Part shown: piece by piece, positions 1,284-28,367 of the stretch
How the letters are laid out: each line of letters starts with the position of its first letter
How positions within the stretch are numbered: position 1 is the first letter of the stretch
Source: Erysipelothrix inopinata
GTDB taxonomy: Bacteria > Bacillota_I > Bacilli_A > Erysipelotrichales > Erysipelotrichaceae
Assembly (NCBI RefSeq): GCF_014396165.1
Contig: NZ_CP060715.1
Span: forward strand, 60,001 to 92,000
Reading direction: 5' to 3'
DNA length: 32,000 nucleotides
The notes under the pieces: model-generated
What the model was told of the DNA's origin: nothing
Seen by the model: only the letters and a program-made list of their open reading frames with translations
Databases searched by the model: none
Made by a program: the position numbers and the translations under genes

Positions 1284-2177
1284 TTACTGTTCCTTCATCT
1301 TTCGTCTTGGTAATTTCGTAGATAAATTATTAAGTACGATTGCTCCAACAAATATTATTACAGTCGCAAGTTTCATCATCTTAGGATCCATATTCATACG
1401 TATTGCGATCGCAATAATAAATCTATAGAGAATAGAACCCACGATTACCATAAATGTCATACTGCATTTTTTCTTCCTTAATAATAGGGTTCCTAAAATA
1501 ACTGATGCTAGACCCAGAACAACCATCCCTGTTCCCATGGAAATATCGAATGATTTTCCAACCGAAACTGCTACACCACCCGATAAGGCAACGATGCCAT
1601 TTGAAAGTGCCAATCCAAATATTTTCACTTTTCCAACATCATGACCCAATGATGCTACTAAATTTTCATTGTCTCCAGTTACTTTCAATAAGTAACCAAG
1701 ACGTGTTCTCAAGATGAAATCAATAAAAATTTTCACACCCACCACGAGGAGAACCATTACGATTAGTTGATAGTTATTTACAATAAACGATGGAGCATTC
1801 ATTGCCTCTAACCAATTTGTATCAAAGAGGTTTGCATATTTAAATAAAGCAATGTTTCCTTTACCACCAATAAGTAGATTTATTGAGTATAATCCCGTCA
1901 TTACCAAAATCCCACTTAACAATGCCGTTATCTTAAATTTAACATGGAAAATACCAGTCATCATTCCCGCTAAGACGCCTGCCAAGAGTGATGCAATTAA
2001 CGCAACCCAAGGATTGACACCTTGAATTATCAGTACTGCACTTACGACCGCACCTAATGGAAATGTTCCATCAACTGACAAATCGGGAATATCCAATATT
2101 TTATACGATAACATAACACCCATAGTCAGAATCCCATAGAGAAGACCCTGTATCAATACATCAATTGCAAATGCCAT
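1284..2177 (-). CDS. ABC transporter permease (COG4120-type, multi-pass membrane protein)
   Basis: A 297-aa highly hydrophobic protein. Its start overlaps the binding-protein stop (TAATG overlap at 2175-2179). The operon context is binding protein - permease - ATPase. Confidence 0.85.
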   Translation of the reverse strand: MAFAIDVLIQGLLYGILTMGVMLSYKILDIPDLSVDGTFPLGAVVSAVLIIQGVNPWVALIASLLAGVLAGMMTGIFHVKFKITALLSGILVMTGLYSINLLIGGKGNIALFKYANLFDTNWLEAMNAPSFIVNNYQLIVMVLLVVGVKIFIDFILRTRLGYLLKVTGDNENLVASLGHDVGKVKIFGLALSNGIVALSGGVAVSVGKSFDISMGTGMVVLGLASVILGTLLLRKKKCSMTFMVIVGSILYRFIIAIAIRMNMDPKMMKLATVIIFVGAIVLNNLSTKLPRRKMKEQ

Positions 2178-3130
2178 TATTCTTTCACCATAGCTCTTTC
2201 TAGTACAGAACCAGGAATTTCAATTCCCAATTCTGTTGCGATTTTTTGACTTACCATTAATTCAGTTGACGTTGCAGTCACAACTGGTAAATCCTTGATT
2301 TCTTTTTTATTTACAAGTATATCAACAATCATCTCACCAGCTTGTTTTCCTAAACTCATGTAGCTTACAGAATCACTCGCGAAGATTCCTTGATCAAATT
2401 GCCCTGATTCAGCCATAAATACAGGAATATTTGTTTTTAAACCCGCATCAACCACAAGCCCTGTCGAAGCAGCAACTGTGTTATCATTAACGATAAACAT
2501 TGCGTCAACATTTTGTGCAAGTTGCGAAACAGCCATTGGTAGCTCATTACTTTGAGAAATACCTTTTTCTACAATTTCTAATCCAAGTTCAGAAGCGAAC
2601 GCTTTGATATCTTTAACTTGGTTTGTACTATTGATTTCACCTGTATTGAATGGAATTCCAACCGTTTTCACGTTTGGCGTAATTTCATTAATAAGCTCGA
2701 ATTGTTTTTTAAGTGGTGGCATATCGCTCACACCCGTAACATTTCCTTCAGGCTGATTTACATTTTCTACAAGTCCCGCTTGCTTTGCATCTGATACTGC
2801 ACTGAATACAATGGGTATTCCAGTTCCCTCCGCTGCATTAACTGCAGCTTGTACCGACGGTGTTGCTACTGCAAATATTAAATCCACTTTGTCATTTACA
2901 AATTGCGATGCAATTTGTTGTGCTGTTGATACATCTTCATTTGCCGTTTTGATAACCACTTCAAAGTCGTCACGTTCCTTTAGTACCGAATTCATACCAT
3001 CAAATGAATCATTTAGCGCTGGATGATCTCCCCACTGAATGACACCCACTTTAAATTTTTCATTTCCTTTAGCTTGGCATCCCGCCAAAATAAACATTGT
3101 AAGTAAAACAATTAATATATTCTTTTTCAT
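2177..3130 (-). CDS. ABC transporter substrate-binding lipoprotein, paralog 1 (ABC_sub_bind / COG2984 family, usually annotated putative Trp/Tyr uptake)
   Basis: Lipoprotein signal MKKNILIVLLTMFILAGC. Shows clear paralogy with ORFs 3422-4360 and 7512-8468, sharing motifs KVGV.Q...H..L, IFA..T, NVTGVSD and PVF.AE.G. Confidence 0.85.
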   Translation of the reverse strand: MKKNILIVLLTMFILAGCQAKGNEKFKVGVIQWGDHPALNDSFDGMNSVLKERDDFEVVIKTANEDVSTAQQIASQFVNDKVDLIFAVATPSVQAAVNAAEGTGIPIVFSAVSDAKQAGLVENVNQPEGNVTGVSDMPPLKKQFELINEITPNVKTVGIPFNTGEINSTNQVKDIKAFASELGLEIVEKGISQSNELPMAVSQLAQNVDAMFIVNDNTVAASTGLVVDAGLKTNIPVFMAESGQFDQGIFASDSVSYMSLGKQAGEMIVDILVNKKEIKDLPVVTATSTELMVSQKIATELGIEIPGSVLERAMVKE

Positions 3131-3159
3131 AGTCTCTATCCTTCTCTTCTATATTCAAC

Positions 3160-3184
3160 AAAAAAGCCGTGTATCTACACGGCC
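3160..3184 (-). terminator. attenuator terminator of leader 1, directly upstream of the paralog-1 RBS
   Basis: The RNA is GGCCGUGU-AGAU-ACACGGC followed by UUUUUUG. It lies about 30 nt upstream of the ATG at 3130. Confidence 0.8.
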
Positions 3185-3270
3185 AAAATAAACGTTTAGA
3201 AGATTTAGTAATGAGCCTATGTAGATTTTAGTAACACAAAACAGCTAATATCCACTCGGCTATTAACTGA

Positions 3271-3336
3271 TTAACTAAAATAATAATAGTAGCTCCATTG
3301 TTGGGCTTGTGTATTAAGTAATATGTTGTCTTTCAT
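3271..3336 (-). CDS. candidate leader peptide L1, MKDNILLNTQAQQWSYYYYFS (21 aa), Tyr-rich regulatory codon run
   Basis: Hand translation of the minus strand gives ATG AAA GAC AAC ATA TTA CTT AAT ACA CAA GCC CAA CAA TGG AGC TAC TAT TAT TAT TTT AGT TAA. An SD-like AAGGAAAGG..GGUG lies upstream. The ORF sits between the promoter at 3361-3389 and the terminator at 3160-3184. Confidence 0.6.
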   Translation of the reverse strand: MKDNILLNTQAQQWSYYYYFS

Positions 3337-3360
3337 ATGAAGCACCAACCTTTCCTTGAT

Positions 3361-3389
3361 AGAATAACAGACATTTTCATAGTTATCAA
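3361..3389 (-). promoter_or_regulatory. sigma-A promoter of leader 1 / paralog-1 operon
   Basis: -35 TTGATA (3389-3384), 17-nt spacer, -10 TATTCT (3366-3361) on the minus strand. Confidence 0.55.
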
Positions 3390-3421
3390 TAGTTTTACAT
3401 AAATTTTTCATTTCTTTTTCA

Positions 3422-4360
3422 CTATTCAAGATATTCTTTCAAATCTTCAGGAATTTCAAGTCCGTATGTTTTAGTCATCTTCTCATTAATCCGAATGCGT
3501 GTAGTTTTTGCTTTTTCAACGGGTATTTCAGAAGGTTTCCGTTGTTTGTTTAAAATGTCAAAGATCATATTTCCTGCTTGGTTTCCAAGTTCTGTATAGC
3601 TTATCGAGACAGTAGCGAGAACTCCTTCATCAAATTGTCCATCTTCCGATGCAAATACCGGAACTTGATTAGAACTTGCTTGATCCACAATCAATGAGGT
3701 ATTACTAACGTTCAAGTCATCTGTAATTAAATACATGGCATCTACCTTTTTCAAAAGATTGGGAAGTCCCAGTGCAAGTTCTTGCCCATTGGTTACACCC
3801 ATACTTTCAACATCAAGTCCCAAGTGTTTTGCTTCGGATTCCAGCAGCACTTTTTGAAACTCACCATTGCTGTCACCCGTTCGATAAACCAATCCAACCC
3901 TTTTACTATCTGGCATTATTTTTTTCATCAATTCCAGTTGTTGTGCTACTGGAGCTCTATCAGTTACCCCCGTTATCTTATCAGTTGGATGTTCCATATC
4001 ATCAACAAGTCCTGCTGCCACTGGGTCGGTTACCGCAATAAATACAACCGGTATTGATCCATCAAATACATTAAGTGCCATTTGTGCGGATTGTGTCGTA
4101 ATCGCATAGATAACATCTACACCCTCATCTTTTAGTGCTTGAGCATTTATCATAATGTTCGCTGGATCTGATTGGGCATTTTTCAATACTATTTCAACAT
4201 TTTCCTTTTCAAGAACCTGAGCCATACCGGCGTACGAATCATTCAGCGATGCATAATCCCCAAACTGAAGCACGCCTACTTTATATTCTGCAGAAGACTT
4301 CGAGCTGCATCCCGTTAACACCAATAAAACAATTAATAATAAACTTAATCTCTTTCGCAT
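3422..4360 (-). CDS. ABC transporter substrate-binding lipoprotein, paralog 2 (orphan, no adjacent permease of its own)
   Basis: Start moved to the ATG at 4360 (MRKRLSLLLIVLLVLTGC), which follows RBS GGAGGAG. The track start at 4375 lies in the terminator U-tract. Lipobox LTGC is present, and the protein is paralogous to 2177-3130. Confidence 0.85.
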   Translation of the reverse strand: MRKRLSLLLIVLLVLTGCSSKSSAEYKVGVLQFGDYASLNDSYAGMAQVLEKENVEIVLKNAQSDPANIMINAQALKDEGVDVIYAITTQSAQMALNVFDGSIPVVFIAVTDPVAAGLVDDMEHPTDKITGVTDRAPVAQQLELMKKIMPDSKRVGLVYRTGDSNGEFQKVLLESEAKHLGLDVESMGVTNGQELALGLPNLLKKVDAMYLITDDLNVSNTSLIVDQASSNQVPVFASEDGQFDEGVLATVSISYTELGNQAGNMIFDILNKQRKPSEIPVEKAKTTRIRINEKMTKTYGLEIPEDLKEYLE

Positions 4361-4375
4361 AACCTGCTCCTCCAT

Positions 4376-4402
4376 AAAAAAAGGATCGTGTGTCCACGAT
4401 CC
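4376..4402 (-). terminator. attenuator terminator of leader 2
   Basis: The RNA is GGAUCGUG-GACA-CACGAUCC followed by UUUUUUA. It lies immediately 5' of the GGAGGAG RBS of paralog 2. Confidence 0.85.
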
Positions 4403-4471
4403 TCAATGTAATATCAATAACATTTGATGTGCCCTACGACGAAAAGGGCGGCAATAACTTGCTTCCCTTGA

Positions 4472-4510
4472 TTAACTTCGTCTGTTGCTCCATCGTTTAT
4501 TTATCATCAT
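4472..4510 (-). CDS. candidate leader peptide L2, MMINKRWSNRRS (12 aa)
   Basis: Hand translation gives ATG ATG ATA AAT AAA CGA TGG AGC AAC AGA CGA AGT TAA. SD AAGAGG lies 8 nt upstream. It shares TGG AGC and the AGT TAA TCA ending with L1. Confidence 0.45.
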   Translation of the reverse strand: MMINKRWSNRRS

Positions 4511-4582
4511 TGTTATTACCTCTTTTAACTAAGATATCACAGTTGATAATTAAAATCTATAGTTTCTGTAAAATATTGTTAG

Positions 4583-5125
4583 TTATTTCATTTCTTTCAT
4601 TGTTTTTTCATGTTTTCGAATCTTCTTAATTGCCCAATCATAATGACTTGCAGTAGATGAAACGCAGTAGCTACCTAAAGTGGTGCCTCCTGTCCATTTG
4701 AACACACCCTTGGAAAATAACTCATCATTAGAGAATGTATCAATCATTGCCATTACTTTTTCGTGACTCTCTTTTAGAAGTGCATTGGCTTCTTCGTATG
4801 AAGTATCCTGGTGTTTAGCAATGAACGCTTCATTCATCGCACCATAAGTTTTCCAATTATATGGTGCAGGCAAGAAAGGTGTTTCAACTCCTGCAACATT
4901 TTGATCCACCCAGTTTAGTAATAACTGATGCCACTCGTAGAGATGAATGAGTACATCTTTAATATTTTTATCTCTTTTCCAATGTGCTTCCTTGTATTTA
5001 TCCCCTTCAAACTGAAAGTCTGCTTTTAGATCTTCATCATTTAACTTATTGAGTAAGTTATATAGTTTTTCAAAATTATCATTACTTTGCTCTATTAAAT
5101 CTTTCTTAGTTGTTGGTCTTGCCAT
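4583..5125 (-). CDS. ClbS/DfsB-family (DUF1706) four-helix-bundle protein
   Basis: A 180-aa protein. The N-terminal MARPTTKKDLIEQSNDNFEKL and the FSNDELF motif resemble my recollection of E. coli ClbS (MAVPSSKEELIKAINSNF ... FSNDELY). Confidence 0.65.
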   Translation of the reverse strand: MARPTTKKDLIEQSNDNFEKLYNLLNKLNDEDLKADFQFEGDKYKEAHWKRDKNIKDVLIHLYEWHQLLLNWVDQNVAGVETPFLPAPYNWKTYGAMNEAFIAKHQDTSYEEANALLKESHEKVMAMIDTFSNDELFSKGVFKWTGGTTLGSYCVSSTASHYDWAIKKIRKHEKTMKEMK

Positions 5126-5129
5126 AATA

Positions 5130-5939
5130 TTACTCCTTTTCTGTAATTATATATCCTGCTTCAGTTATCCAATCATTCGCATTTTCACTTTGAGCTGGTG
5201 AGACAATCGGAATGTTAACCATAACTCCCGACAGTTCCAGTCCATGATGTTCTGCCCATCCAGCCAAAACTTCACACACCTGATTCATTTGATTATAGTC
5301 ACCCGCAAACACAGTGGATACCATTTTAAATGACGGTTCACATTGATATACGTCTTCACTCAGTCTCGACTTAGATATATCTATGGATATTTGAACTTCG
5401 ATATCTATTTGTTCTAATTTATATTCTTTATCATGATAAATTGTCATACACTGATACGGATCTGAAAATATAACGGAATTATCAGTTGTTTTTTCATAGA
5501 GCTCATCCCATAGAGATGCTTCACCGTAATAATCTGTAACATTTTTACGAACACTTATTACGTTTCTAGCTGGTATCTCTTTAACACTAACATGATACTT
5601 TTCAAAGGATTTCTTTTCGTAAGACATTGAATTCAACAATTGCAGTTTGGCTTCCATTTCTATGATATCTTCCTGCAACTTATTTCGCCGCGACTCAAGT
5701 TTATTTTCAACAAACCCTTGATCATGACTTGAACTAATTTCCTTTATTTCTGCCAAAGAGAAACCAACTTCTTGAAGAACCTTAATTCTATTTAAATCCT
5801 TTATCTGATGACTACTATAATATCGGTATCCTGTAAGTTCGTCATGCTTATAAGGTAAAAACAATCCTAGATCTTCATAATGATGAAGTGTTCGGATCGT
5901 CGTATTCGTAATTTTTGAGAAAGCACCAATCCGAAACAT
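5130..5939 (-). CDS. MerR-family transcriptional regulator with C-terminal GyrI-like effector domain (BmrR-like)
   Basis: N-terminal MerR HTH (FRIGAFSKITNTTIRTLHHYEDLGLF...GYRYY), a coiled-coil linker, and a C-terminal domain of about 150 aa that looks GyrI-like. Confidence 0.85.
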   Translation of the reverse strand: MFRIGAFSKITNTTIRTLHHYEDLGLFLPYKHDELTGYRYYSSHQIKDLNRIKVLQEVGFSLAEIKEISSSHDQGFVENKLESRRNKLQEDIIEMEAKLQLLNSMSYEKKSFEKYHVSVKEIPARNVISVRKNVTDYYGEASLWDELYEKTTDNSVIFSDPYQCMTIYHDKEYKLEQIDIEVQISIDISKSRLSEDVYQCEPSFKMVSTVFAGDYNQMNQVCEVLAGWAEHHGLELSGVMVNIPIVSPAQSENANDWITEAGYIITEKE

Positions 5940-5960
5940 AGACCACCTCGCTATATCTCT

Positions 5961-5991
5961 ATTATAATCTCTAACACTACGTGAGAGTCAA
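5961..5991 (-). promoter_or_regulatory. MerR-type promoter with a 19-bp spacer and an internal imperfect dyad
   Basis: On the minus strand: -35 TTGACT (5991-5986), 19-nt spacer CTCACGTAGTGTTAGAGAT, and -10 TATAAT (5966-5961). The spacer holds the dyad CTCTAACAC-TAC-GTGAGAG (plus-strand reading). Confidence 0.65.
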
Positions 5992-6002
5992 CACCCATCT
6001 CT

Positions 6003-6034
6003 AAAATAAAAAGGCGTCACATTTTGTGATCGCC
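6003..6034 (-). terminator. intrinsic terminator after the uracil permease gene
   Basis: The RNA is GGCGAUCACA-AAA-UGUGACGCC (9 bp with one bulged A) followed by UUUUUAUUUU. Confidence 0.8.
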
Positions 6035-6046
6035 CCTTGCTTATGA

Positions 6047-7342
6047 TTATTTTTTTACAATTAGGTTTAAAATTTGGTTGAGTAAAATTCCGATAATAGC
6101 TGCAAGGCTCATTCCTGACAATGCAACTCCGCTCATTATTTCCACACTTGCACCACCCAACCCAACTACAAGCATGCTTGATACGATAACAAGATTTTTC
6201 ATATCTGCAAGATCAGTATTATCTTTGATTAACACTTTGATTCCGTTTGAAGCAATCAATCCGTATAGGATGATTGTCATTCCCCCAATTACAGCCCAAG
6301 GGATACTTGCTATAAATGCTTGAATCCACCCTAAGAATCCAAGGCAAATCGCAATTACTGCTGCAAGTCCTATTACCCAAACCGAACCTACTCCAGTCAT
6401 TGCAATAACGCCAGTGTTTTCTCCATAGGTAGTATTTGCCGGTCCACCCAATGCAGCCGACACGAAGGTCGCAATCCCATCACCTAATAGTGTTCTATTA
6501 AGTCCTGGATCTTCAAGAAAATCGTTTCCTGTAATTTCACCCAGAACAATATGGTCACCAATGTGTTCCGCAATCGTAACAAGTGCAAGTGGTGCAAAGG
6601 CGATGACAGTTCCAAAATCAAGCTTGTATGTTCCTAACACTTGAAAATTTGGAATTTGAAAGAAACTATAACCGTCAAGAACATGTTTAATATCAACAAG
6701 CCCTGTAAGAACTGCAGTAATGTAACCTACTAAAATAGCAATTAGGAATGGAATTACTTGAATAAACCCTTTTCCTTTAAGCGATACAAGAACTACTGTT
6801 GAGAATGTTACGAGTGCAACAAGTGGCACTTTCCATTCTGCACCCACAACACCTAAATATTTCCCTTGTTCAACAAGGGGTTGGATTCCTCTTAATCCTG
6901 ATTCTACCACCGCATTGGGTGCAAGTGATAATCCAATAATCACAATCATCGGTCCAATGACTACCGGAGGAAGAAGTTTCTTAATCCATCCACTTCCTGT
7001 AAACGAAATAATAATAGCAATTAATACATAGATAAATCCAACAACCATCAGTCCAGTATAAGCACTTTCTGGTCCACCTGTTGCCATGATTGCTGCGGAA
7101 ATACTTGAAATATATGCAAAGCTACTTCCTAAATAAACGGGAGCTTTTGCTTTAGTACAAAGAATATAAATTAATGTTCCTATCCCACTACATACTAAGG
7201 CAACCCCAATATCTAATCCTGTCAATATCGGAACAAGAACTGTTGCTCCAAACATTGCAAATACATGTTGAAAACTTAAAACTAACCATTCAAGTTTTGA
7301 TTTTGGTTTCTCATGAATACCAATACGTAACCCATTCTCCAT
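6047..7342 (-). CDS. pyrP: uracil permease (NCS2 / uracil-xanthine permease family)
   Basis: A 431-aa protein of about 12 TM segments. The N-terminal motif SFQHVFAMFGATVLVP...SGIGTLIY...PVYLGSSFAYI is typical of PyrP/UraA. Confidence 0.85.
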   Translation of the reverse strand: MENGLRIGIHEKPKSKLEWLVLSFQHVFAMFGATVLVPILTGLDIGVALVCSGIGTLIYILCTKAKAPVYLGSSFAYISSISAAIMATGGPESAYTGLMVVGFIYVLIAIIISFTGSGWIKKLLPPVVIGPMIVIIGLSLAPNAVVESGLRGIQPLVEQGKYLGVVGAEWKVPLVALVTFSTVVLVSLKGKGFIQVIPFLIAILVGYITAVLTGLVDIKHVLDGYSFFQIPNFQVLGTYKLDFGTVIAFAPLALVTIAEHIGDHIVLGEITGNDFLEDPGLNRTLLGDGIATFVSAALGGPANTTYGENTGVIAMTGVGSVWVIGLAAVIAICLGFLGWIQAFIASIPWAVIGGMTIILYGLIASNGIKVLIKDNTDLADMKNLVIVSSMLVVGLGGASVEIMSGVALSGMSLAAIIGILLNQILNLIVKK

Positions 7343-7365
7343 ATAACTTCCTCCTGTGCAATCGC

Positions 7366-7393
7366 AAAATAAAAGAGCGCATGTGCGCCCTCT
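7366..7393 (-). terminator. attenuator terminator in the pyrP leader
   Basis: The RNA is AGAGGGCGC-ACAU-GCGCUCUUU followed by UAUUUU. It lies about 25 nt upstream of the pyrP RBS AGGAGGAAG. Confidence 0.8.
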
Positions 7394-7433
7394 AAGGATA
7401 GTTTAAAGAATAAAAACTTATGTCATATTCTTT

Positions 7434-7467
7434 ATCCTTGCCATAGTCTCGCTATGACTTAAAGGAC
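7434..7467 (-). promoter_or_regulatory. candidate PyrR-type binding hairpin (anti-antiterminator), divergent apical loop
   Basis: The RNA is GUCCUUUAAGUCAUAGCGAGACUAUGGCAAGGAU. It has the CCUUUAA ... AAGGA frame of PyrR sites. The apical GUCAUAGCGAGACU replaces the consensus GUCCAGAGAGGCU. Confidence 0.4.
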
Positions 7468-7511
7468 TGCTTGCTAATAATATAGCATAAAACAATTTAA
7501 AACCCAATGCT

Positions 7512-8468
7512 CTATTCAACTATTTTCGCATTCTTATAGTTATTTGTGTCTATATCGAATTTTTCTGCGACTAATTTATTGAGAATTAGCGTGGTTTCAC
7601 GACTTTGATAGACACCAAGCGACTCCGGTTGAACATTCTCGATAAGGATTTTTTCAATCATTTCTCCCGCTTTTTTTCCCAATTGTTCATAACTTAACGA
7701 TTCAGCCGCAAGAATTCCTTCTTTCATTTGGCCATCTTCTGATGCAAAGACAGGAATACTTTGTTTCGTAGCCAGTTCAGTGATTGTCGATGTTGCAGAT
7801 ACGACCATATTATCTGTAATGTTGTAGATTGCATCCACCCGACCTAACATCTGAGTAACTACTGTTGATACATCTTGAATGTTAGAAATTCCCACTACAT
7901 CAAGTTCTACACCAACACTTGGTGCAATTTTTTGTAAAGCATCAATTTGAACTGTAGAATTAATCTCACCCGTATTATAGATTATTCCAACTTTTTTTGC
8001 CTCAGGCAAAATATTTTTGACAACCATTAATTGTTGATCAGCAGGTGCTAAATCACTCACACCCGTAACATTACTTCCAGGATGATTTAAAGAATCAACC
8101 AACTGTGCCTCAACAGGATCGGTTACTGCATTAAAAATCACAGGAATGCTTGTACCTTCTGTAGCATAATATGCAGATTGTGCTGCGTTAGTTCCAATAG
8201 CATAGATTAAATCATACTTGTCCGATACCATACTTTGCGCAATTAAATCCGCATCTGCAACATTTCCTTGAGCATTCTTAACCACAAACTCTGCATCCTT
8301 ACCGTATTTTTCTTGCCAATATTCTTGTGCTCCTCTAACTGCCGCATCAAGTGAGGGATGTTCCGCAATCTGAATCACACCTATCCGATACTTACTTTCG
8401 TTGCTTGCCTGAGCCGTACATCCTGCAAGTAATACCACACTCATCATCATTACTAGTATTTTTTTCAT
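7512..8468 (-). CDS. ABC transporter substrate-binding lipoprotein, paralog 3 (orphan)
   Basis: Start moved to the ATG at 8468 (MKKILVMMMSVVLLAGC), which follows RBS GAAGGAGAG. The longer track ORF runs through the terminator. Lipobox LAGC is present, and the protein is paralogous to the two other binding proteins. Confidence 0.85.
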   Translation of the reverse strand: MKKILVMMMSVVLLAGCTAQASNESKYRIGVIQIAEHPSLDAAVRGAQEYWQEKYGKDAEFVVKNAQGNVADADLIAQSMVSDKYDLIYAIGTNAAQSAYYATEGTSIPVIFNAVTDPVEAQLVDSLNHPGSNVTGVSDLAPADQQLMVVKNILPEAKKVGIIYNTGEINSTVQIDALQKIAPSVGVELDVVGISNIQDVSTVVTQMLGRVDAIYNITDNMVVSATSTITELATKQSIPVFASEDGQMKEGILAAESLSYEQLGKKAGEMIEKILIENVQPESLGVYQSRETTLILNKLVAEKFDIDTNNYKNAKIVE

Positions 8469-8488
8469 AGTCTCTCCTTCTCTCAAAT

Positions 8489-8510
8489 AAAAAAGCCACT
8501 CAATGTGGCT
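8489..8510 (-). terminator. attenuator terminator of leader 3
   Basis: The RNA is AGCCAC-AUUGA-GUGGCU followed by UUUUUUAUUU. It lies about 20 nt upstream of the ATG at 8468. Confidence 0.8.
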
Positions 8511-8582
8511 GATTGATTTAAGAAAGGAAGCCACATTGATTTAACCAAAGACAAAAGGTCAATATCAACGGGCGACATTAAC

Positions 8583-8636
8583 CTAGTTTCTAAAGATAAA
8601 AAAGAAGCTTAATTGCATTTGAATAGTCTGTATCAT
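8583..8636 (-). CDS. candidate leader peptide L3, MIQTIQMQLSFFFIFRN (17 aa), Phe-rich regulatory codon run
   Basis: Hand translation gives ATG ATA CAG ACT ATT CAA ATG CAA TTA AGC TTC TTT TTT ATC TTT AGA AAC TAG. SD AAGGAAGG lies 8 nt upstream, about 15 nt downstream of the -10 box. Confidence 0.65.
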   Translation of the reverse strand: MIQTIQMQLSFFFIFRN

Positions 8637-8658
8637 AATCCAAACCTTCCTTGAGACT

Positions 8659-8687
8659 ATAATATCATCCCTTACATTTGTTTGCAA
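8659..8687 (-). promoter_or_regulatory. sigma-A promoter of leader 3 / paralog 3
   Basis: -35 TTGCAA (8687-8682), 17-nt spacer, -10 TATTAT (8664-8659) preceded by TGA, which gives an extended -10-like context. Confidence 0.6.
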
Positions 8688-8757
8688 TACTTTTCATTAT
8701 CTATGTAAACATGTTTCATTTAGTGATATAATAGGCGGAGAAAAGGAGATACTAAAT

Positions 8758-10509
8758 ATGTATACTTGGTCTTTAGATGAACTCTATAAAGGATACGATG
8801 AATCCTTCGATACAGATGTAAAAAAAGTATCAGAAATTATCACATCACTTAATCAACAAGCACTTAACTTAAACAACAAAGAAGATTTAATTGCTTTTAT
8901 GAAACTGGATATTGAATTCAACAATCTTGCTCAATCACTCGTTAGCTTCGTAAGCTTAAATTTAGCTACCAATGCTACCGATACCATTAGCAATCAAAAA
9001 TATAGTCAATTGATGCCTATGTTTAACGAGGCTACTAAAGCATATGCTTATTTTAAAAAGTTCTTAGCAGAGAATAAAGATAACTTTGATGAATGGGTTC
9101 TCGAAGATGACTTCCTTAAAGAACATGAATTCATTCTTCGTGAAATCATCAGTAACAGTCAATATAACCTAAATGAGGATGTGGAAGACGTTATTGCAAA
9201 AATGAAACTTAACGCATCCTCTAACTGGTCAAAATTACAAGGATACCTTGGATCAATGGCTACCATTGAATATGATGGTAAAACTCATACTCTTTCCTCA
9301 ATTCGTAATCTTGCCTATTCACATGATGCGAAAACACGTAAAGAAGCATACGAAAAAGAACTCGAACTTTATACTAAGATTGAAGATGCCATTGCATTTG
9401 CATTGAATAGTATTAAAGGAGAAGTTAATACTCTTTCTGCACTTCGTGGATATGAAAACGCTCTTGAACAAACACTTATCGCATCACGTATGTCAAAAGA
9501 AACATTGGATGCATTGATGGGAGCAATCGAGTCATACCTTCCTACATTTAGAAAATACCTTAACCATAAGGCTGAACTTCTTGGACACACCAACGGACTT
9601 CCTTGGTATGATCTTTTCGCACCATTTGAAACAAGCAATCCTAAAGAATATACAGTTGAAGATTCTCGCGAGTTCATTTTAGATAGTTTTGGACACTTCT
9701 CAGATGACTTGCAAGAAATGGCACGTAAAGCCTACGATGATCGTTGGATTGATTTCTTACCTCGTGAGGGAAAACGTGATGGAGCATTCTGTTCAAATCA
9801 ACCACAAATCAAACAAAGCCGTGTTCTTGCAAACTTTGATGGTTCAATTTCTGATATCGTTACGATAGCTCATGAATTAGGACACGCATACCACGGAATG
9901 ATGATTGAGGACTTATCAATCTTAAATACAAACTATACAATGCCTGTTGCAGAAACTGCATCAACATTCTGTGAAAATATCGTCTTCAATGCTGCTCTTA
10001 AAACTGCAAGTGATGAAGAAAAACTTGTCTTAATTGAAAACTCAATTTCTGACTTAACTCAAATCACGGTTGATATCATGTCACGCTACAAGTTTGAAAG
10101 CGAAGTCTTTGAGAGACGTCAAACTGAGTTCTTATTTGCAGCTGATTTAAAAGAAATCATGTTGCAAGCACAACGTGATACATACGGTGAAGGCTTAGAT
10201 CCTGAATTCTTACATCCTTATATGTGGGCTTGCAAGGGTCACTACTATAGTGGTGGACTCAGTTACTATAACTTCCCTTATGCATTTGGTGGTTTATTCG
10301 CGCTTGGTCTTTATGCACAATTCGAAAATGAAGGGGCATCATTTGTCCCTAAATATCAAGCACTTCTCAAAGCTACAACAACCGCATCTTGTGAAGATGT
10401 AGCCATGATGGCTGGAATTGATGTTACTCAAGAAGCATTCTGGAAATCAAGTCTCGATGTTGTTGCAAAACGAATCGACGATTTCATTGCATTAACACCT
10501 ATTAAATAA
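8758..10509 (+). CDS. pepF: M3-family oligoendopeptidase F
   Basis: A 583-aa protein with zinc motif HELGHAYH and overall PepF-like architecture. RBS AAGGAGA is upstream. Confidence 0.85.
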   Translation: MYTWSLDELYKGYDESFDTDVKKVSEIITSLNQQALNLNNKEDLIAFMKLDIEFNNLAQSLVSFVSLNLATNATDTISNQKYSQLMPMFNEATKAYAYFKKFLAENKDNFDEWVLEDDFLKEHEFILREIISNSQYNLNEDVEDVIAKMKLNASSNWSKLQGYLGSMATIEYDGKTHTLSSIRNLAYSHDAKTRKEAYEKELELYTKIEDAIAFALNSIKGEVNTLSALRGYENALEQTLIASRMSKETLDALMGAIESYLPTFRKYLNHKAELLGHTNGLPWYDLFAPFETSNPKEYTVEDSREFILDSFGHFSDDLQEMARKAYDDRWIDFLPREGKRDGAFCSNQPQIKQSRVLANFDGSISDIVTIAHELGHAYHGMMIEDLSILNTNYTMPVAETASTFCENIVFNAALKTASDEEKLVLIENSISDLTQITVDIMSRYKFESEVFERRQTEFLFAADLKEIMLQAQRDTYGEGLDPEFLHPYMWACKGHYYSGGLSYYNFPYAFGGLFALGLYAQFENEGASFVPKYQALLKATTTASCEDVAMMAGIDVTQEAFWKSSLDVVAKRIDDFIALTPIK

Positions 10510-28278: not shown

Positions 28279-28367
28279 TGGAGGATTGGCCGAGCGGCTT
28301 AAGGCACCATCTTGGAAAGGTGGCGAAGTGTTATGCTTCCGAGAGTTCGAATCTCTTGTCCTCCGCC
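28279..28367 (+). tRNA. tRNA-Ser (anticodon GGA), CCA encoded
   Basis: Acceptor stem GGAGGAT/GTCCTCC and anticodon stem CCATC/GGTGG. The anticodon loop TTGGAAA gives anticodon GGA. There is a long variable arm, a T-arm GAGTTCGAATCTC, and a terminal GCCA. An extended -10 TGTGTATAAT lies about 15 nt upstream. Confidence 0.9.

Follow-up and report, generated by a model that had tools for sequence, protein, structure and literature searches.

A predicted leader-peptide attenuator with a Phe codon run upstream of an aromatic amino acid-binding protein gene in Erysipelothrix inopinata

We analyzed a stretch of 32,000 nt from Erysipelothrix inopinata (assembly GCF_014396165.1, contig NZ_CP060715.1, positions 60,001 to 92,000), referred to below as the window; all coordinates count from the window start. 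On its minus strand, a gene for a substrate-binding protein (SBP) is preceded by a leader that carries a short open reading frame (ORF) with a run of Phe codons and a chain of alternative hairpins. Judged from sequence comparison and folding models, this leader is very probably a ribosome-mediated transcription attenuator that senses charged transfer RNA (tRNA)-Phe and controls the aromatic amino acid SBP gene. The module most likely lets Erysipelothrix turn on this uptake protein only under Phe shortage.

Proteobacteria are the textbook case of amino acid sensing by leader-peptide attenuation. Firmicutes, in which T-boxes dominate, use it rarely, and it is seldom found before transporter genes. 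In E. coli, pheL-pheA and pheM-pheST have a short ORF with a Phe-codon run, a terminator, and a competing antiterminator, and a stall at the Phe codons gives read-through. A preliminary description of the window had called the leader pheL-like. The label holds by analogy, but the leader has no Rfam Phe_leader or Leu/phe-leader match.

The Phe leader and its alternative hairpins

The leader is more structured than expected by chance. Its minimum free energy (MFE) was -49.4 kcal/mol (z = -4.3), and equal stability was reached in 0 of 200 shuffles. The region 7000-9200 contained 6 terminator-like sites against 0.9 expected. Mini-ORFs that are preceded by a Shine-Dalgarno (SD) sequence and contain at least four identical aromatic residues within six occurred only twice in the 32 kb on both strands, and shuffled windows contained 0.2 of them. 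The two are the Phe ORF (ATG at 8636) and a Tyr-run ORF (3336), each directly 5' of a PF04392 gene.

A promoter scan found the proposed sigma-A-type promoter at 8659..8687 (-), with the -35 box TTGCAA at 8687-8682, a 17-nt spacer, and the extended -10 element TGaTATTAT at 8667-8659 (TG at 8667-8666, TATTAT at 8664-8659). The match by itself was not above chance, with 8 such sites against 9.5 in shuffles. By-eye reading of the orthologue sequences indicated that the promoter position, the TG extension, and an upstream A-tract recur. The predicted transcription start is at about 8653, which makes the SD sequence AAGGAAGG (8645..8652, -) the very start of the transcript, in line with the earlier claim that the RNA begins almost directly with it. 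The SD lies 8 nt 5' of the ATG, and orthologues have AGAAAGG or AAGGAAGG in the same place.

The leader ORF, MIQTIQMQLSFFFIFRN, spans 8583..8636 on the minus strand and has 17 codons plus UAG (ATG at 8636, TAG at 8585-8583). It contains four Phe codons among five consecutive ones, UUC UUU UUU AUC UUU (8592..8606, -), as had been reported. This run is the proposed stall site under Phe-tRNA limitation.

Every element of the preliminary description was recovered at the coordinates given there, and some of the alternative hairpins are longer than first proposed. Hairpin 1:2 (AGGUUAAUGUCG-CCCGU-UGAUAUUGACCU, 8556..8584, -) starts inside the UAG stop. Its core, in which segment 1, GGUUAAU (8583-8577), pairs with AUUGACC (8563-8557), had been given as 7 bp; the full stem extends to 12 bp. 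Helix 2:3, the anti-antiterminator, pairs UUGAUAUUGACC with GGUUAAAUCAA (8530..8573, -) and extends to 8573-8557 : 8546-8530 in the MFE structure. The local fold is slightly shorter (8572-8557 : 8546-8531). Helix 2:3 sequesters 8 of the 11 nucleotides of the antiterminator 5' arm in the local fold and 10 of the 11 in the MFE structure. The antiterminator 3:4 (8500..8539, -) pairs UCAAUGUGGCU at 8539-8529 with AGCCACAUUGA at 8510-8500 around an 18-nt loop; its 11 bp with the terminator 5' arm are perfect, as claimed. The intrinsic terminator 4:5 (8485..8510, -) consists of AGCCAC-AUUGA-GUGGCU (8510-8494) and the U-run UUUUUAUUU (8493-8485). The energies of the four structures, whose calculation had been proposed earlier, were -12.1 kcal/mol for 1:2, -13.9 for the local fold of 2:3, -17.5 for 3:4, and -8.4 for 4:5.

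The MFE structure added a further element, segment 0, which lies within the ORF and includes the Phe codons. In the 0:1 helix (8575..8616, -), 8616-8599 pairs with 8591-8575 and spans the Phe codons and the stop. Because segment 0 pairs with segment 1 in the MFE structure, the untranslated ground state is predicted to be 0:1 + 2:3 + 4:5. The detail of the 0:1 helix is specific to the window, and other lineages show a different pairing, 0:3.

Three smaller features of the leader were observed. The 10-nt direct repeat UUAAAUCAAU that had been noted is real at both arms (8544-8535 and 8521-8512); it is kept in a near-identical metagenome-assembled genome (MAG) but not in the remaining orthologues. 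The U-rich tract UUUUGUCUUU (8547-8556, -) directly 3' of 1:2 is present in all lineages and was scored as terminator-like by the scan. It is possibly an RNA polymerase pause site, which is more plausible than a terminator because termination there would make the attenuator logic senseless; a pause could keep transcription in step with leader translation. In the MFE structure, the leader SD AAGGAA (8647-8652) pairs with UUCCUU (8524-8529, -) in the antiterminator loop. This pairing would shut the leader ORF to new ribosomes after leader completion, but it is not conserved and is probably incidental.

Conservation and covariation of the leader

A scan of one genome per species gave 80 loci. All SBP genes in them were searched for leaders by script, and further loci were added by protein identity. 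Orthologues of the Phe leader, each with a counterpart mini-ORF, were found in 12 distinct Erysipelothrix/Erysipelotrichaceae lineages. E. tonsillarum and E. enhydrae (loci L007 and L210) are among the carriers of the module, and E. rhusiopathiae has an SBP homologue of 48% identity (P0028). More generally, Erysipelothrix and other Erysipelotrichaceae have SD-bearing mini-ORFs ending in aromatic runs at about 160-220 nt 5' of SBP genes.

The orthologous leader peptides include MVNNHNITNISFFFFFR, MTNINHKQLSFFFNFR, MTNENHKQNSTFFNFR, MTNIHHKQNSSFFYFR, MHNILNNSFFFFNFK, MKRTKIYKQLSFFFFFT, and MQNTHNLITQKSFYFYFS. Their N-termini drift, and the F-run is held 1-2 codons before the stop with synonymous UUU/UUC swaps. 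The run takes the forms SFFFFFR, SFFFNFR, SFFFFNFK, SFFFFFT, STFFNFR, and SSFFYFR.

The hairpins behind the ORF are also conserved. A GGUUAAU...AUUAACC hairpin follows directly after the stop in all lineages. The 2:3 core UUAACC:GGUUAA is kept in 11 of the 12; the exception, L006, has GGAAAU at segment 3 and an alternative 2:3 fold. The antiterminator duplex has -12 to -17.5 kcal/mol across lineages, and a terminator lies 21-45 nt 5' of the SBP ATG in every orthologue.

A whole-leader MAFFT alignment misaligned the variable antiterminator/terminator part, so the arms were extracted by anchoring instead. In this anchored alignment, 92.7% of antiterminator cells were paired, compared with 31-43% when the partner was slid. 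Double changes were found in 8 of 10 antiterminator pairs, and the covariation score was reached by 0 of 500 shuffles. The shuffle z for the antiterminator was -6.3. When arms were swapped, own-lineage duplexes had a mean of -15.1 kcal/mol, and cross-lineage duplexes had -8.4 +/- 2.9 kcal/mol. For hairpin 1:2, RNAalifold analysis of 11 lineages gave compensatory changes in 4 of 11 pairs. The 2:3 core hardly varies and is thus uninformative for covariation; the distal part of this helix exists in every lineage. Phe runs and compensatory mutations, for which the preliminary description had pointed to related genomes, were thus both found there, the mutations in 3:4 and 1:2.

The window is most closely related to Erysipelothrix MAGs in which the genes stand in the same order. 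The 219-nt leader was identical to that of MAG L001 at 217 of 219 positions (99.1%). The SBP coding sequences of the two were 87% identical (72% at third codon positions), and neighbouring genes were 90-92% identical. This comparison indicates that the Phe leader is under strong purifying selection.

Proposed mechanism and ribosome-mask models

Transcription would start at about 8653, and the 17-codon leader ORF would be translated at once. When Phe is scarce, the ribosome would stall with its A-site on UUC UUU UUU (AUC UUU), just short of segment 1. With the stall upstream, 1:2 would fold and keep segment 2 off segment 3. The free segment 3 would allow the 11-bp 3:4 helix to capture the terminator 5' arm, and the polymerase would read into the SBP gene. 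When Phe is plentiful, the ribosome would reach the UAG that overlaps segment 1 and melt 1:2. Segment 3 and the larger part of the antiterminator 5' arm would then be taken up by segment 2 together with the 1:2 loop. Once 2:3 is formed, terminator 4:5 would fold, and transcription would end near 8489-8485. Without translation, the ground state 0:1 + 2:3 + 4:5 would likewise terminate. Ribosome stalling, folding kinetics, and the in vivo response to Phe are the parts of this attenuator model that we infer.

The spacing fits this scheme. The first Phe codon is about 22-25 nt from the GGUUAAU core of 1:2, as counted from the orthologue sequences, and 13-22 nt from the base of the extended 1:2 stem in the folded lineages. 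At this conserved distance, a ribosome on the first Phe codons would end just short of segment 1, and one on the stop would cover it.

In the ribosome-mask models, nucleotides from 15 nt 5' to 10-14 nt 3' of the A-site were kept unpaired, and the terminator probability was calculated from the partition function. In the full-length model of the window, the terminator formed at 1-8% with the A-site on the S, F, F, F, or I codon and at 98% with the A-site from the last Phe/Arg codon through the stop, supporting for the window the ribosome logic predicted earlier. L007 and L023 behaved in the same way. L018 and L075 discriminated in a model truncated before the terminator 3' arm. In total, the equilibrium mask models discriminated in about 5 of 9 lineages. 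Five lineages were terminator-dominated in every state at full length, and four were antiterminator-dominated in every state when truncated. Equilibrium mask models cannot replace kinetics.

The predicted target gene

The predicted target, an SBP gene (7512..8480, -), has the ribosome-binding site GAAGGAGAGA at 8480-8471 and a coding sequence from ATG 8468 to 7512. It encodes a 318-aa lipoprotein beginning MKKILVMMMSVVLLAGC, with the lipobox LLAGC and a PF04392 match (E 1.9e-68). The gene is monocistronic. Its closest solved relatives are 6HNI (E 1.8e-57), 3LKV, and 3LFT. These are C. difficile CD0873 with Tyr bound, V. cholerae VC_1101 with Phe, and S. pneumoniae SP1069 with Trp, respectively (PMC6816091). 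By homology, the gene encodes the substrate-binding protein of a TrpXYZ/CD0873-type aromatic amino acid ATP-binding cassette (ABC) importer. The Phe preference of this SBP is presumptive.

The window contains two further PF04392 paralogues, at 3422-4375 and 2177-3130, which are 38-40% identical. The paralogue at 2177-3130 is followed by a permease gene (1284-2177) and an ATPase gene (496-1281). An assignment of the SBPs to Phe, Tyr, or Trp from the published selectivity positions (CD0873 E263/Y279) was tried and dropped, as identical residues in all three window paralogues made it uninformative.

Weighing the attenuator model

Several results weigh against the model of a Phe-sensing attenuator. 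The terminator stem is short, with 6 bp and -8.4 kcal/mol. In the swap test of the distal 2:3 helix, own pairs had a mean of -10.2 kcal/mol and cross pairs -7.2 +/- 3.8 kcal/mol, and the own pair was often not the best; covariation of this helix was thus not demonstrable by the swap test across lineages. L006, L008, L009, and L056 discriminated in neither of the crude mask models. In the truncated model of the window with the A-site exactly on the stop, the antiterminator was still favoured (92%), so kinetic trapping of the earlier-transcribed 2:3 helix must be assumed. Other points concern the target. The permease and ATPase genes are downstream of the Tyr leader, not the Phe leader. The published selectivity positions are Glu/Tyr in 3 of 3 window SBPs and thus lend no support to a Phe specificity of this SBP. 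In L075 (1471-3619), the F-run leader MKRTEIYAQLSFFFFFT stands directly before an SBP of the Tyr clade, followed by a permease. L075 looks like a natural leader swap that arose by deletion or recombination between paralogous leaders, with loss of the F- and W-SBP genes.

We considered three other explanations. The hairpin switch could be real and be set by a protein, an uncharged tRNA, or a small molecule, the mini-ORF being incidental to a U-rich tract. Conservation of the 1:2 hairpin (GGUUAAU...AUUAACC) and of the U-tracts extends to the nucleotide level, a pyrimidine tract would tolerate U/C changes as well, and, judging by the conserved palindrome upstream (8703-8719), a further regulator may act at this locus. 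A U-tract binder, however, does not explain why the same scaffold swaps the UUY run for a UAY (Tyr) run, which codon reading does. The frame, SD, start codon, and stop position are also kept in all lineages despite the drift of the N-terminal codons, and no Rfam family, T-box included, matched. We consider this explanation very unlikely. Slightly less probable still is that the leader peptide is a nascent-chain arrest peptide of the TnaC/SecM type that senses free Phe or another ligand in the ribosome tunnel. It would account for the conserved C-terminal motif (L/N)SFFF.F(R/K/T) close to the stop and for the paralogous Trp leader, whose only Trp is invariant and lies within a conserved RWSN context. 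The run composition is free to vary among F, Y, and N/I, though, and shortage is the expected inducer of an importer, a response that codon-run stalling delivers directly. Stalling at the first Phe codons, which would stop the ribosome shortly before segment 1, fits the classical logic, as does the intrinsic-terminator design.

The elements could also be present without regulating, as a leaky constitutive attenuator or the end of a small RNA or small-protein gene, with the SBP expressed by read-through or from another promoter. The weak terminator, the several orthologues that were terminator-dominated in every modelled state, and a weak promoter-like match at 8486-8458 are consistent with this. 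Covariation of the antiterminator with the terminator 5' arm across lineages would be purposeless for a constitutive terminator, however, and the whole leader is under extreme purifying selection. The codon identity also parallels the T-box specifiers of homologues. We regard a non-regulatory leader as improbable, to about the same degree as an arrest peptide, and retain attenuation by a ribosome reading the Phe codons as the preferred explanation.

Tyr, Trp, and mixed leaders

A Tyr-run leader, MKDNILLNTQAQQWSYYYYFS (3150-3390, -; ATG at 3336), with a promoter, an SD, and the terminator GGCCGUGUAGAUACACGGCUUUUUU, lies upstream of the SBP-permease-ATPase operon (2177-3130, 1284-2177, 496-1281). 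It is homologous to the Phe leader, as the F-leader profile matched 3354-3161 (nhmmer E 2e-5). Its codons comprise W, four Y, and one F, so the operon with the shared permease might be opened by a lack of any one of the aromatic amino acids. A Trp leader, MMINKRWSNRRS (4395-4560, -; ATG at about 4509), with the terminator AGGAUCGUGGACACACGAUCCUUUUUUU, lies upstream of the SBP gene at 3422-4375. It has a single Trp codon in a (K/R)(R/T)WS(N/S) context, invariant in eight loci. One regulatory codon is unusual for a Trp attenuator; the conserved residues around it could instead point to an effect of the nascent peptide.

In species with a single SBP, the F-leader profile also matched the mixed YF leaders; all matches lay just upstream of an SBP gene, and W leaders were not matched in this search. 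The matches to Y and YF leaders suggest that F, Y, and YF leaders form one homologous RNA family in which the codon run sets the specificity. Across the loci examined, the leader family counts at least about 35 members. Mixed leaders (...YFYFYFS, ...YYFYFYFR, ...SFYFYFS) were present in L015, L016, L020, L022, L024, L026, L029, and L206. In these Erysipelotrichaceae, a single SBP gene was found in the fetched locus, and in L206 it is directly followed by the permease and ATPase genes. The mixed YF leader may be the undivided ancestral state that senses Tyr and Phe together. In a neighbour-joining (NJ) tree, the SBPs formed separate F, Y, and W clades that track the leader type, with one exception.

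We lean, by a modest measure, towards viewing the Phe leader as one copy of a re-tunable RNA module. The scaffold would have been duplicated with the SBP genes, the codon run would set the specificity, and the three SBPs would be switched individually while sharing one permease/ATPase; the conserved palindrome upstream of the leader would be a second layer of control, exerted by a DNA-binding regulator. The variants of such a module would be the F-run and Y-run paralogues, the mixed YFYFYF form in single-SBP species, and the separate single-Trp leader for the third SBP. If true, this would be a counterpart, built on another sensor, to the Tissierellia T-boxes of the same transporter family, whose specifier codon is swapped between Phe and Tyr.

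Comparison with T-boxes and known attenuators

SBP homologues in Tissierellia are preceded by T-box motifs, with Rfam RF00230 matches of 114-129 bits. Tissierella creatinophila has two tandem SBP genes with T-boxes, and their specifier positions are UUC and UAC. Over all T-box loci, a specifier heuristic gave UAC in 23 and UUC in 12. In-place replacement of T-boxes by leaders was considered and set aside: in the NJ tree, the UUC and UAC SBPs of Tissierellia share one clade of their own, distinct from the F, Y, and W clades of Erysipelothrix. It appears at least as likely that Phe/Tyr tuning evolved in parallel.

The trpXYZ genes of S. suis are regulated by a T-box(Trp) (PMC9382623). This system and the Tissierellia Phe/Tyr T-boxes resemble the Phe leader in several respects. 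They serve the same transporter family (PF04392 SBP, BPD_transp_2 permease, and ATPase), have a terminator-versus-antiterminator output, and use aromatic tRNA charging as the signal, and each paralogous SBP has its own tuning, to Phe or Tyr. The sensor differs: here it would be a ribosome translating a codon run, not direct tRNA binding, and the window has no T-box motif. The NJ tree also gave no one-to-one orthology of Phe SBPs across the two orders.

Known RNA families were searched directly. An Rfam scan of the window at gathering thresholds found only ribosomal RNA (rRNA) and tRNA and no T-box. A cmscan of 8350-8800 at E<=10 found no Phe_leader RF01859, Leu/phe leader RF01743, or T-box. 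Permissive Rfam matches in this region, such as those to NsiR4 and a small nucleolar RNA, were at chance level only and were discarded. In metagenomes, the pattern AGCTTYTTYTTYN{3,6}TTYN{5,15}GTTRAT gave at least 120 matches; none of those listed had the downstream hairpin signature, and the pattern is too degenerate.

The likeness to pheL/pheM (Phe_leader RF01859) lies in a Phe-run ORF upstream of an intrinsic terminator with a competing antiterminator. The Erysipelothrix leader differs in that it has no Rfam homology at E<=10 and a Gram-positive host of the Erysipelotrichia, and its target encodes the binding protein of a transporter instead of a biosynthetic enzyme or a synthetase. Its stall site is upstream of segment 1 instead of inside it, and there is one more helix layer. 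The topology of six segments is that of the his leader (hisL, Salmonella/E. coli, segments A-F), in which A:B + C:D + E:F terminates and B:C + D:E antiterminates. Here, 0:1 + 2:3 + 4:5 would terminate, and 1:2 + 3:4 would antiterminate. The two differ in regulatory codons and target, their sequences are unrelated, and the 0:1 detail is not conserved among Erysipelothrix lineages.

Among Firmicutes, candidate His leader-peptide attenuators have been described in Erysipelotrichales, Peptostreptococcaceae, and the B. cereus group (Ashniev et al. 2022, PMC9413887), and attenuators occur in lineages without T-box control of the same genes (PMC9413887). S. aureus ilvBNC has a Leu-rich leader-peptide attenuator (PMC5794164). 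The Phe leader shares with them leader-peptide attenuation and partly the same order, Erysipelotrichales. Those attenuators respond to His or Leu and control biosynthetic operons, whereas here aromatic codons precede transporter SBP genes, and there is no sign that the RNAs are related. The Leu/phe leader RF01743 of L. lactis is also a leader-peptide type element with Phe/Leu codons (Weinberg et al. 2010, PMC2864571); the Phe-leader region has no match to it, and the taxon and downstream genes differ.

A literature search turned up no account of this transporter being served by aromatic leader peptides. The mechanism is textbook; the leader family, the host group, and the target gene appear to be previously undescribed. 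Where relatives have T-boxes, Erysipelotrichia seem to control an aromatic amino acid importer by codon-run leaders. With F, Y, and mixed forms on one scaffold, the family offers a ready-made specificity-swap series. Judged by their leader codons, the SBP paralogues gain a provisional Phe-, Tyr-, or Trp-responsive label. Homologous SBPs are tied to virulence: CD0873 of C. difficile is a vaccine candidate, and TrpX of S. suis is conditionally essential in vivo. Because the Erysipelothrix genome is reduced, with many amino acid pathways missing (PMC9769512), regulated uptake probably matters during life in the host. The leader family, the host group, the transporter target, the F/Y/mixed codon-swap series, and the Phe/Tyr T-box parallel would merit a short study.

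Palindrome and neighbouring genes

The palindrome ATGTAAACATGTTTCAT at 8703-8719 lies 16 nt upstream of the leader -35 box and 39 nt upstream of the divergent pepF ATG. It fits the motif ATG[AT]AA-N3-6-TT[AT]CAT and is the sole match in the window (0.17 expected). Of 32 Erysipelotrichia loci, 12 likewise have this motif as their sole match, in each case 100-300 nt upstream of an SBP gene. By its position and recurrence, it is a candidate operator of a regulator. In L010-L014 (Longicatena, Dielma, [Eubacterium] hominis, and relatives), the SBP 5' regions are short and have no aromatic mini-ORF and no T-box. The palindrome was present in 2 of the 4 examined loci without leader or T-box (L013 and L014), where it would be a third control mode for the same transporter.

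Three genes lie between the Phe-SBP gene and the other two SBP genes (4583-7342, -), here and in close MAGs. They encode a uracil/xanthine permease (6047-7342, -), a MerR/GyrI-like regulator (5130-5939, -), and a DUF1706 protein (4583-5125, -). In other Erysipelothrix species, the SBP genes stand next to one another. A strong terminator-like hairpin (7393-7372) stands between the SBP stop and the start of the uracil/xanthine permease gene. The window also contains the 5' end of a 16S rRNA gene, cut at the window edge (1-280, -), and one tRNA gene (28280-28365, +).

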